DNA of 64,000 nucleotides from an uncultured virus (IMG/VR IMGVR_UViG_3300020190_000040). Lineage: Duplodnaviria > Heunggongvirae > Uroviricota > Caudoviricetes > Kyanoviridae. Location: IMG/VR virus record IMGVR_UViG_3300020190_000040; one strand, given 5' to 3'. The notes under the pieces are model-generated. The model saw only the letters and a program-made list of their open reading frames with translations. It did no database searches and had not been told where the DNA came from. Each line of letters opens with the position of its first letter. Position 1 is the stretch's first letter. The translations under genes were made by a program, and so were the position numbers. Shown here piece by piece: positions 60,096 through 60,915 of the stretch.

Positions 60096-60130
60096 ATAAT
60101 AACATAAAAAAAGGAGGGTGTCAACCCTCC
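60096..60130 (-). terminator. terminator of micro-ORF operon fused with sigma70 promoter
   Basis: GGAGGG-TTGACA-CCCTCC-T7; TTGACA-17-TATTAT. Confidence 0.8.
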
Positions 60131-60137
60131 CGCTTGA

Positions 60138-60227
60138 TTAATTCTTATACAACCACTGAATGTAGGTTGAAAGTAAGATTGTTCCTAGAGCTGCTACAGC
60201 AGTTAGAGATATGATAGTTTGTATCAT
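60138..60227 (-). CDS. 29-aa single-TM peptide (not in ORF track)
   Basis: MIQTIISLTAVAALGTILLSTYIQWLYKN; TAATG coupling, GGAG SD. Confidence 0.6.
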   Translation of the reverse strand: MIQTIISLTAVAALGTILLSTYIQWLYKN

Positions 60228-60325
60228 TATTTTGCTCCCACTAGTTGTGCTAGTTGTGCTTGATAACGACGCTCCTCTTTTTGCTTTTGTTCCTTAATCA
60301 ATTGTAGGAAGTTAAGTTTTTTCAT
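60227..60325 (-). CDS. 32-aa helical peptide (not in ORF track)
   Basis: MKKLNFLQLIKEQKQKEERRYQAQLAQLVGAK; ATGA coupling, GGAGG SD. Confidence 0.65.
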   Translation of the reverse strand: MKKLNFLQLIKEQKQKEERRYQAQLAQLVGAK

Positions 60326-60483
60326 TGCTTTTCCTCCCAGTTCCAATTGTTACATGGACGATAGGAAATACCACGATACTTATTTGGTGGATGAGATGGA
60401 GCATGTGTTTCTGAATACCACTTACGATATTCTAGTTTCGGAATGTGAGTATTATACTTCACACCACGATAGGTTGCTGTCAT
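60322..60483 (-). CDS. DUF4278-like small protein 2 (not in ORF track)
   Basis: MTATYRGVKY...KYRGISY, two YRG motifs; ATGA coupling. Confidence 0.75.
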   Translation of the reverse strand: MTATYRGVKYNTHIPKLEYRKWYSETHAPSHPPNKYRGISYRPCNNWNWEEKQ

Positions 60484-60620
60484 CCCTTGGTCCCCTCTTT
60501 TACAAATTTGACCCCACGATAGGTCTCATTGTATTGTTGAGGTTGTTGTTGCATTTGCTGTTGATAAGCGATACGCTTTTCGGTATCGTATTCAACGCCA
60601 CGGTATACGACTTTCGACAT
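60480..60620 (-). CDS. DUF4278-like small protein 1, Gln-rich (not in ORF track)
   Basis: MSKVVYRGVEYDT...QQQMQQQPQQ...TYRGVKF; AAGGAG SD. Confidence 0.8.
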   Translation of the reverse strand: MSKVVYRGVEYDTEKRIAYQQQMQQQPQQYNETYRGVKFVKEGTKG

Positions 60621-60652
60621 TAGGTTTCTCCTTAGTTGTTCAGGTTAAAGAG

Positions 60653-60878
60653 CGTTCCTTCAGTCGGCTTTTGCGTCTATGAATTTACAGGTCTTTGGCG
60701 AGTGTTCTATATAAATTTGAACGAGCTCTTCCTTTACATTGTTCGGCACTTTTGAAATGCGAACATTATTAATAAGTTTCTGAGCTTCTACACACGACCA
60801 GAGAATGATTTCCATAGATGAACGATCCGTTCCGAGTCGGCTTACTTCCGTTCGCTATTCGGAAATAGCGAATGAACG
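60653..60878 (-). ncRNA. tandem glnA-type glutamine riboswitch-like aptamers
   Basis: Unit 1 CGTTCA-[9-bp stem]-CGGAAGTAAG-CCGACT-CGGAACG (60828-60878); unit 2 CGTTCA-TCTATG..CATAGA-CGCAAAAGCCGACTGAAGGAACG (60653-60824); upstream of DUF4278-like genes. Confidence 0.75.
60660..60815 (-). CDS. 51-aa ORF embedded in the second aptamer (not in ORF track)
   Basis: MEIILWSCVEAQKLINNVRISKVPNNVKEELVQIYIEHSPKTCKFIDAKAD. Confidence 0.6.
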   Translation of the reverse strand: MEIILWSCVEAQKLINNVRISKVPNNVKEELVQIYIEHSPKTCKFIDAKAD

Positions 60879-60915
60879 TTTATTATATATCTATTTAATT
60901 TTGTAGTGAGTGATA

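Follow-up and report, generated by a model that had tools for sequence, protein, structure and literature searches.

Nested glutamine-I-like aptamer cores around a small-protein gene in a T4-like cyanophage leader RNA: a candidate two-pocket riboswitch

In the window analysed here, a 64,000-nucleotide stretch of an uncultured virus (IMG/VR record IMGVR_UViG_3300020190_000040), two aptamer-like units precede DUF4278-type genes on the minus strand. Pairing patterns among relatives showed that the two units are nested, the inner one lying in the P3 loop of the outer, and on the same comparative grounds the element is a glutamine-I riboswitch variant with a new architecture, its outer core having the structural features of that class but not its Rfam score. 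The best model for its function, to which we give a probability of about one half, is that glutamine locks the fold, represses an open reading frame (ORF) held within it and frees the ribosome-binding site of the DUF4278 gene. A wider reading is more doubtful and is put forward tentatively: that T4-like cyanophages almost universally carry, in this element, a glutamine riboswitch with two cooperating pockets, domain-swapped within one chain, in which gene slots in P2 are inversely controlled and the outer linchpin sets an ON (G23-C60) or OFF (C23-G60) response.

By profile matches the window belongs to a T4-like cyanophage with speD upstream of the element, and its closest DNA matches are the Synechococcus phages DSL-LC02 and S-SRM01 (about 71%). 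A gene near the element, recognised from its sequence, is presumably psbA. On the minus strand speD is followed by the two aptamer-like units, the second of which holds a 51-codon ORF, then by a pair of DUF4278-type genes, one more small gene and finally a terminator-like hairpin. The features are, from 5' to 3' on that strand:

60882..60897, minus strand: candidate promoter elements, TAAATA (60897-60892) and TATAAT (60887-60882), read from the sequence
60874..60878, minus strand: outer P1 5' strand (C1-C5), pairing with 60657-60653, from cross-unit covariation of pair 5
60851..60872, minus strand: hairpin of 22 nt that forms the outer P2 (slot a), here without an ORF, read and folded
60843..60850, minus strand: C21-G22-G23 of the outer junction, with the linchpin G at 60848, together with the E-loop strand AAGUA, from linchpin covariation
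60835..60842, minus strand: P3 5' strand, common to both aptamers, from cross-unit covariation
60820..60833, minus strand: inner, circularly permuted P1 hairpin (GGAACG, loop GAT with linchpin G at 60827, CGTTC), from the swap of pair 5 and folding
60811..60818, minus strand: inner P2 5' arm, containing the ATG, from reading, folding and homologs
60660..60815, minus strand: ORF of 51 aa, phrog_504 family, from reading, coding selection and profile
60676..60683, minus strand: inner P2 3' arm, also codons near the ORF end, from reading, folding and homologs
60670..60675, minus strand: inner junction C21-G22-C23 (linchpin C at 60673) and AAA, no E-loop, coding for D-A-K, from the homolog parse
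60662..60669, minus strand: P3 3' strand, its last base being the T of the stop codon, from the homolog parse
60652..60661, minus strand: GAA strand of the E-loop, outer P1 3' strand GGAACG and linchpin C60 (60652), from covariation and folding
60628..60652, minus strand: predicted expression platform, anti-Shine-Dalgarno (anti-SD) strand 60652-60646, starting at C60, with the Shine-Dalgarno (SD) TAAGGAG at 60634-60628, from folding
60480..60620, minus strand: first downstream gene, DUF4278-like (IF17-like), 46 aa, by Pfam DUF4278 and phrog_5049
60322..60483, minus strand: second DUF4278 gene, 53 aa, by Pfam DUF4278 (28.8 bits, over the cut-off)
60227..60346, minus strand: third small gene, 39 aa, probably in the same operon, by phrog_545 (E 0.01)
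60112..60131, minus strand: terminator-like hairpin ending the probable transcript, from a hairpin scan

The position of the element upstream of DUF4278 genes, as given in a first-pass annotation made from the sequence alone, held up: the first downstream gene scores 20.5 bits against Pfam DUF4278 (E 6e-4), under the cut-off of 25.3, and matches phrog_5049 at E 1e-12, and the second gene passes the cut-off. The third gene (60346-60227) resembles a family that we call 'MNTL', which lies directly 3' of the aptamer in 39 of 56 elements with a 5-nt P3, in place of the DUF4278-like gene. The candidate elements at 60882..60897 include a late-promoter motif, and a sigma-70 scan gave a weak match (9/12) at 60926-60898. 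Many other loci (L002, L006, L011 and L362 for example) carry upstream of the element a short inverted repeat centred on a -10-like hexamer and, at a greater distance on the upstream side, a motif resembling TAAATA; this arrangement is perhaps an early/late promoter pair giving transcript-dependent folding. In L014:491-295 the element is followed, some 200 nt downstream and in the same orientation, by a manA RNA.

Nesting of the two aptamer units

The evidence from the linchpins comes from a set of relatives gathered with a pattern that did not fix P2, P3 or the linchpins and parsed without any pairing rule; its 120 listed loci comprised 107 distinct elements, six duplicates and seven misses (four truncated, two chance matches and the variant L219). 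The linchpin of glutamine-I aptamers is a long-range pair, G23-C60 (excerpts of PMC5393176 and PMC6212724; numbering after the former). In the 107 listed elements, position 23 in unit 1 forms a Watson-Crick pair with position 60 in unit 2 without exception (89 C-G, 18 G-C). The reverse linchpin, which joins position 23 in unit 2 to position 60 in unit 1, is formed in 105/107; of the two misses, the G-G of L231 is an artefact of parsing. Pairing within a unit is found in only 89/107 (unit 1) and 88/107 (unit 2) of these listed elements, and all four combinations of the two linchpins occur among them. P3, too, forms between the units: among elements listed in the larger parse, the 5-nt class of the cross-unit helix is fully paired in 57/57, and in those with an 8-nt P3 the inner pair is formed in 73/73 with four pair types. 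In the window P3 joins 60835-60842 to 60669-60662 with 6/8 bp and two C-A mismatches. Among the listed elements of the 8-nt class, position 3 keeps a mismatch in 72/73, of which 66 are C-A, and position 6 does so in 62/73; in the window these positions are 60840/60664 and 60837/60667, and the conserved mismatches are possibly a non-canonical motif between both pockets.

The P1 strands lead to the same topology. The first-pass annotation had read the CGTTC and GGAACG flanking the ORF as a P1 of its own; these are not mutual partners. The partner of CGTTC (60824-60820) is the GAACG upstream of it (60832-60828), and the GAACG downstream of the ORF is paired to the CGTTC found in unit 1. The inner P1 hairpin has a predicted pairing of 0.87-0.99. 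A search for variants carrying C55 (unit 1) together with G5 (unit 2) gave 120 loci, made up of 82 that were not full elements, one duplicate and 37 distinct elements; as the search pattern itself fixed the swap in the inner P1, the test lies in the outer pair together with a control pattern. Outer pair 5 is C-G in 34 of the 37 and T-A in three, and the control pattern gave no full element among 38 matches. When both topologies were enforced in folding, the nested helices were lower in energy in 130/130 elements (median 2.8 kcal/mol). Furthermore, the Rfam model aligns the ORF-less double units L009 and L020 as a single aptamer with a P3 insert of 38-39 nt, and in the S-CREM1 record 99 nt are annotated as one glnA element. 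Because the units are nested, unit 2 is not a self-contained aptamer, and in this respect the earlier description is not supported. The halves of the E-loop are likewise split, AGUA in unit 1 and GAA in unit 2. It follows from the cross-unit pairing that the inner core is a circular permutation, here closed by a 3-nt loop and devoid of an E-loop.

A tandem arrangement of independent aptamers that close separate P1 helices is very improbable. Both P1 strands are identical between the units in most elements, so that either pairing can be drawn on paper; the halves are aligned separately in the part of Weinberg 2010 that concerns them, and Sherlock 2022 lists glutamine doublets as tandem. That arrangement, however, would require G-G and C-C linchpins in the window and mismatched ones in 18 and 19 of 107 listed relatives, would place two P1 mismatches in each of the 37 variants, and would leave each unit with half an E-loop and a P3 of at most 2-3 bp. 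A direct test for an own P1 and linchpin in each aptamer was negative.

As for class membership, the ligand contacts C1, G2, C58 and G59 and the junction base G22 are present in both cores (C1, G59, G22 and C58 are named as ligand-contacting in excerpts of PMC6698751), and both have the three-way junction of P1, P2 and P3 through the common cross-unit P3. The outer core has the E-loop (AAGUA at 60847-60843 with GAA at 60661-60659). The inner core presents AAA opposite a single C, which is C in 107/107 listed elements; lacking an E-loop, it was not filed as a member of glutamine-I (RF01739), and it may not bind ligand. Against RF01739 unit 1 alone scored 34.1 bits, with a gathering cut-off of 35, and unit 2 of the window gave no match. 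The cut-off was reached by 7/20 related loci and by 3/14 ORF-bearing copies, so that standard scans miss most of the latter. The pseudoknot of glutamine-II (RF01704) is absent, the linker pairing upstream as P3, and the RF01704 model had no match in the window at E up to 1.

A small-protein gene within P2

The P2 helix of the inner unit consists of 8 bp (60818-60811 with 60683-60676, minus strand, one G-U). The layout in the first-pass annotation agrees with a direct reading of the DNA: the arms TCTATG (60818-60813) and CATAGA (60681-60676) enclose 131 nt, the 5' arm contains the ATG (60815-60813), and IDAKAD followed by a TGA (60662-60660) closes the frame in the 3' core, just before GGAACG (60658-60653). 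A pattern for this site occurs once in the window and in none of 100 shuffles, a weak control since the pattern was derived from the site itself. The strong control is given by homologs: P2 pairs 1-4 are formed in 69/69 listed ORF-bearing elements of the rule-free parse, in which pair 5 is kept in 64/69 and pairs 6 and 7 in about half. For pairs 1-3 only these counts were used, since the larger parse of 142 elements demanded 3 bp in P2 and these pairs are formed there by construction.

Pair 4 occurs as C-G, A-U, U-A and U-G and is paired in 95/95 listed elements; shuffling gave a mean of 57, none of 2000 shuffles came as high, and sliding the register gave 76, 11 and 14. The 5' arm is mostly non-coding, unlike the coding 3' arm, and the residue that precedes the conserved D (W, I, E, K or R) therefore changes together with an untranslated base. 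On a tree of the ORFs, itself weakly resolved, the 3' base of pair 4 changes seven times without adding a step to those of the 5' base; the tree was built on 53 columns with 60 of 118 forks open and gives, for this reason, no direction of gain or loss. These homologs argue that P2 is under selection across the ORF. Frame conservation and P2 covariation, the comparison proposed in the first-pass annotation, were both borne out in the listed elements, with the stop site shared in 90/95 and compensatory changes at pair 4. Homologs without the ORF or without P2 pairing had been named there as counter-evidence; among the listed elements the pairing is retained in 69/69, but the ORF of the inner loop (slot b) is absent from 47/142.

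Two further searches gave similar figures. A protein-anchored search returned 73 loci and, after removal of 10 duplicates and four incomplete loci, 59 distinct complete ORFs, of which 53 lie within the aptamer with at least 5 bp in P2, two in the P1 variant and four free-standing. A metagenome scan, serving as replicate, found 118 loci with 113 distinct elements, 85 of them ORF-bearing; P2 has at least 4 bp in 84 of the 85, the shared stop site is present in 78, and 55 of 70 metagenome loci of at least 2 kb match proteins of the window.

Substitution pattern and conservation show the nested ORF to be a true gene. Each of the 95 long inserts in slot b among the listed matches has an ATG within 16 nt, and 90 share the TGA/TAA stop site. 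Over 43 disjoint pairs, dN/dS is 0.20 and differences by codon position are 398/192/689. Exactly two Cys, 31-40 residues apart, were counted in 121/121 listed ORFs of both slots. The window ORF matches phrog_504 at E 8e-4, and 64/71 aligned members match that profile; the family has 414 representatives at 50% identity. The product has a hydrophobic N-terminus and two invariant Cys, and its predicted structure is a two-helix hairpin (pLDDT 86); it may be a disulfide-closed mini-protein, possibly membrane-bound or exported. Foldseek returned no match for the model at E up to 0.001 in the PDB or in BFVD, where the best rows were unnamed or uncharacterised and included several cyanophage proteins; a search of the Atlas gave only scores of 0.77 to hypothetical clusters, Pfam gave no credible match, and no paralog was found elsewhere in the window. 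ORFs of the outer P2 loop (slot a) match phrog_6471, and the slot-a and slot-b proteins are homologous (E 3e-6). PHROG families 504, 6471 and 13397 (T4-GC 430 and 429) carry no annotation beyond 'hypothetical protein' and are not connected there with an RNA. In P-SSM2 (L363:937-1086, AY939844.2) a 49-aa nested ORF is intact yet unannotated in the record.

The distribution among relatives also showed that the ORF is an optional cargo of the element. Two viral scans yielded at least 240 loci, which with the window parse to 142 distinct elements; among these listed elements the ORF is confined to slot b in 69 and to slot a in 12, both slots are filled in 14 and neither is in 35, and a further 12 have a slot-b ORF with slot a unread. 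Slot a carries an ORF in 26 of 130 readable listed elements. Near-identical proteins are found in either slot, with four slot changes on the tree, three of them forced by well-supported branches, and the 22-nt slot-a hairpin of the window is the slot-b hairpin of S-PM2 and S-CREM1. Cassettes may have been exchanged by recombination between the repeated flanks. All of 12 cultured phages picked from BLAST matches have the nested element, with a slot-b ORF in nine and none in three, and a relative of the element matches 436 phage records, many of them near-identical isolates, 189 over at least 80% of the query.

Several departures from the common layout were seen. Free-standing ORF paralogs lie between two other small genes with no surrounding aptamer in L365:1201-1359, L367, L368 and L369, and are a possible source of the cassette or an escapee from it. 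In L219 the ORF starts deeper in the P2 loop, with a strong SD of its own at the end of the 5' arm and an altered inner junction. A change in P3 removes the usual stop or shifts the frame in L715 (S-SRM01), L397, L539 and L200, where the ORF reads through the end of the aptamer; L010, L018, L073, L167, L194 and L218 have an extra variable hairpin of about 30 nt after position 60 and before the downstream SD.

GTDB cellular genomes, used as a false-positive control only, gave at least 120 chance matches, of which 1/120 passed the parser. In four RNA runs, at 80% likeness, contigs of relatives span the aptamer cores and DUF4278, and in two of them contigs join across a different insert with 128 skipped bases; these are contigs only, uncontrolled, and were not counted as evidence. 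A sequencing-run search found no run with more than 0.05 of the sampled words of the window.

Proposed regulatory output and competing explanations

The anti-SD helix that starts at C60 is a prediction of folding: its 7 bp have a predicted energy of -4.6 kcal/mol, which becomes -1.7 when G59 and C60 are withheld (a loss of 2.9), and its seven bases are identical in 24/28 elements of the C60 class. An anti-SD helix from C60 has been proposed in an ON model for the gifB leader (excerpts of PMC6212724). Withholding position 60 in folding freed the SD in 16/22 C60 elements and closed it in none, and in G60 elements it closed the SD in 48/103 and freed it in one. This suggests opposite polarities by outer linchpin class, with C60 predicted to be ON-like and G60 OFF-like; DSL-LC02 has, like the window, a G23-C60 leader, and Syn19 and P-SSM4 have C23-G60 leaders. 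C60 elements pair C60 straight to the SD, and many G60 elements (e.g. L094, L040 and L032) hold the anti-SD through G59-G60.

The first-pass annotation had proposed that folding and translation are mutually exclusive. This stands insofar as at least one base of the ATG lies within the P2 helix in 86/95 listed elements (none in 9/95) and the ribosome has to read through both cores; it fails insofar as a self-contained aptamer was assumed. Since the ribosome must unwind P2, the inner junction and P3 and, at the stop, the outer P1, folding and translation would exclude each other on a given molecule, and sensing nitrogen status and translating the nested gene probably compete on one mRNA. In the 5-nt-P3 class 44/48 listed elements have an SD-like GGAG that overlies G59 together with G60 of the inner linchpin, at a distance of 9-11 nt from the ATG, and the GAG loop is present in 45/48 ORF-bearing vs 0/9 ORF-less elements listed, a comparison uncorrected for kinship; an SD-like 4-mer precedes the ORF in 0/45 listed elements of the window's class.

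According to our best model, this phage leader RNA would have two glutamine pockets joined via one common P3 helix, the outer a normal glutamine-I aptamer and the inner a circularly permuted one within the outer P3 loop, and the P2 loop of either pocket could take a cassette, be it a short hairpin or a whole gene for a two-Cys small protein. When host glutamine is low, the outer P1 would be open, ribosomes would enter the nested ORF and stop the fold from closing, and C60 would keep the DUF4278 Shine-Dalgarno site shut. When it is high, the ligand would lock both linchpins, clamp the start region of the ORF and free C60 from the anti-SD helix, with the nested gene going down and the IF17-like gene up, so that a single sensor would have two opposite outputs. 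Glutamine binding and the ON output are assumed by analogy with the family, and ligand-driven repression of the ORF is our inference only. Some predictions weigh against so clean a scheme. Folding in the absence of ligand predicts that the inner P1 and P2 form (median pairing 0.74 and 0.81) and that about 10 kcal/mol would be needed to expose the start of the ORF, for which reason the ORF may be poorly translated whatever the glutamine level. A start region that is paired without ligand weakens a ligand-dependent switch, and a ribosome at the stop would melt the anti-SD helix, which counts against strictly opposite outputs. Further points on the negative side are the 0/45 for an SD-like 4-mer in the window's class, the 9/95 elements whose ATG lies wholly outside P2, the missing E-loop of the inner core and the Rfam score of unit 1.

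The main competitor, to which we would give a little over half the weight of the best model, is that the ORF is a tolerated passenger: the riboswitch would control the downstream gene only, and the ORF would be loop cargo translated at a low, glutamine-independent rate, for instance during RNA synthesis before the 3' arm exists, the aptamer refolding between ribosomes. The 47 of 142 listed elements without a slot-b ORF and the free-standing paralogs in 4/59 protein-anchored loci are in keeping with it, as are the predicted formation of P2 without ligand and the order of the sequence, by which the inner pocket is impossible before the entire ORF is transcribed. Nonetheless, the ATG lies within 3-5 nt of the helix base in 94/95 listed elements, and in one class the SD-like loop goes with the presence of the ORF, which together suggest that the start is deliberately placed under the fold.

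Less probable is a switch gated by translation, in which the ORF would act as an attenuator leader or through translational coupling, ribosome traffic resetting the aptamer or melting the anti-SD helix on termination, so that DUF4278 output would follow translation capacity as well as glutamine. Such gating would account for the shared stop position (90/95 in the listed matches, 78/85 in the metagenome) and for the retention, among the matches listed, of the stop T in 69/69 ORF-bearing against 30/38 ORF-less elements and of the frame of the P3 3' strand in 68/69 against 29/38; in folding, blocking four bases from G59 abolishes the anti-SD helix. However, read-through or early-stop variants exist (5/95 of the listed elements, and S-SRM01), ORF-less elements persist, and the protein has a defined fold and a constrained amino-acid sequence, neither of them a requirement for a mere leader peptide. 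It is improbable that the fold, although real, responds to a protein or to a metabolite other than glutamine, or has a role in the processing or stability of the mRNA: that neither window unit reaches the Rfam cut-off and that the inner core departs from both known glutamine classes would fit this, but every ligand-contacting base and both linchpins are kept, and the downstream gene is the usual DUF4278 partner of the family.

Comparison with known systems

Neither nesting nor an ORF in P2 was found described in our literature search, with Ames and Breaker 2011 and parts of Weinberg 2010 outside its scope; about 80 of the 1039 rows of the 2010 glnA alignment were covered, together with motif searches, and its P2 gap is wide enough for a long insert elsewhere. 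In excerpts of McCown et al. 2017 (PMC5473149), only two glutamine aptamers are counted in cyanophage genomes and phages are said to use riboswitches rarely. If our reading is right, the published structure of these 'tandem' aptamers would be corrected, a natural circularly permuted, domain-swapped aptamer pair would be at hand, a gene for a folded protein would be encoded within a metabolite-binding RNA, and the question of direct host-nitrogen sensing by cyanophages would become testable. Should the cooperative two-pocket reading be true, riboswitches would be common in phages and would tune host nitrogen assimilation during infection.

The element resembles glutamine-I (glnA RNA, RF01739), and the Synechocystis gifB/IF17 leader as described in excerpts of PMC6212724, in its P1 sequence, ligand contacts, three-way junction, outer E-loop, 23-60 linchpin, position before DUF4278 genes and predicted anti-SD helix from C60. 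It differs in having two cores with one P3, P1 and linchpin partners swapped between units, a circularly permuted inner core with no E-loop and a P2 around a 51-codon gene, and in being phage-encoded. With tandem glutamine riboswitches, of which 157 doublets have been reported (PMC9481103) and 'some occur in tandem' (PMC2864571), it shares two aptamer-like units back to back, and rows of the 2010 alignment include cyanophage half-units, among them that of S-PM2. Whereas those doublets were published as separate, pseudo-cooperative aptamers under multiple expression platforms, the covariation seen here shows a single interlocked fold that has just one platform downstream.

The C-G orientation of its linchpin and the lack of an E-loop bring the inner core close to glutamine-II (Downstream-peptide, RF01704; excerpts of PMC6698751). 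Excerpts of the same report describe strand exchange between two molecules in the glutamine-II crystal and glutamine binding by a two-piece RNA. In contrast, the cyanophage element has no downstream pseudoknot helix, and its exchange takes place within one chain and is fixed by evolution; the glutamine-II leader peptide lies downstream of the RNA, whereas the ORF here lies inside it. ORFs also occur in the loops of group I introns, and leader peptides act in attenuators such as mgtL. The likeness to these systems lies in a frame in a peripheral loop of a structured RNA and in translation set against folding. Unlike group I introns, the element has no signs of splicing and no endonuclease domain, its host RNA being a metabolite aptamer, and unlike both intron ORFs and mgtL-type leaders, its ORF has last codons and a stop that are themselves part of the aptamer core and a product that is a conserved, folded protein.
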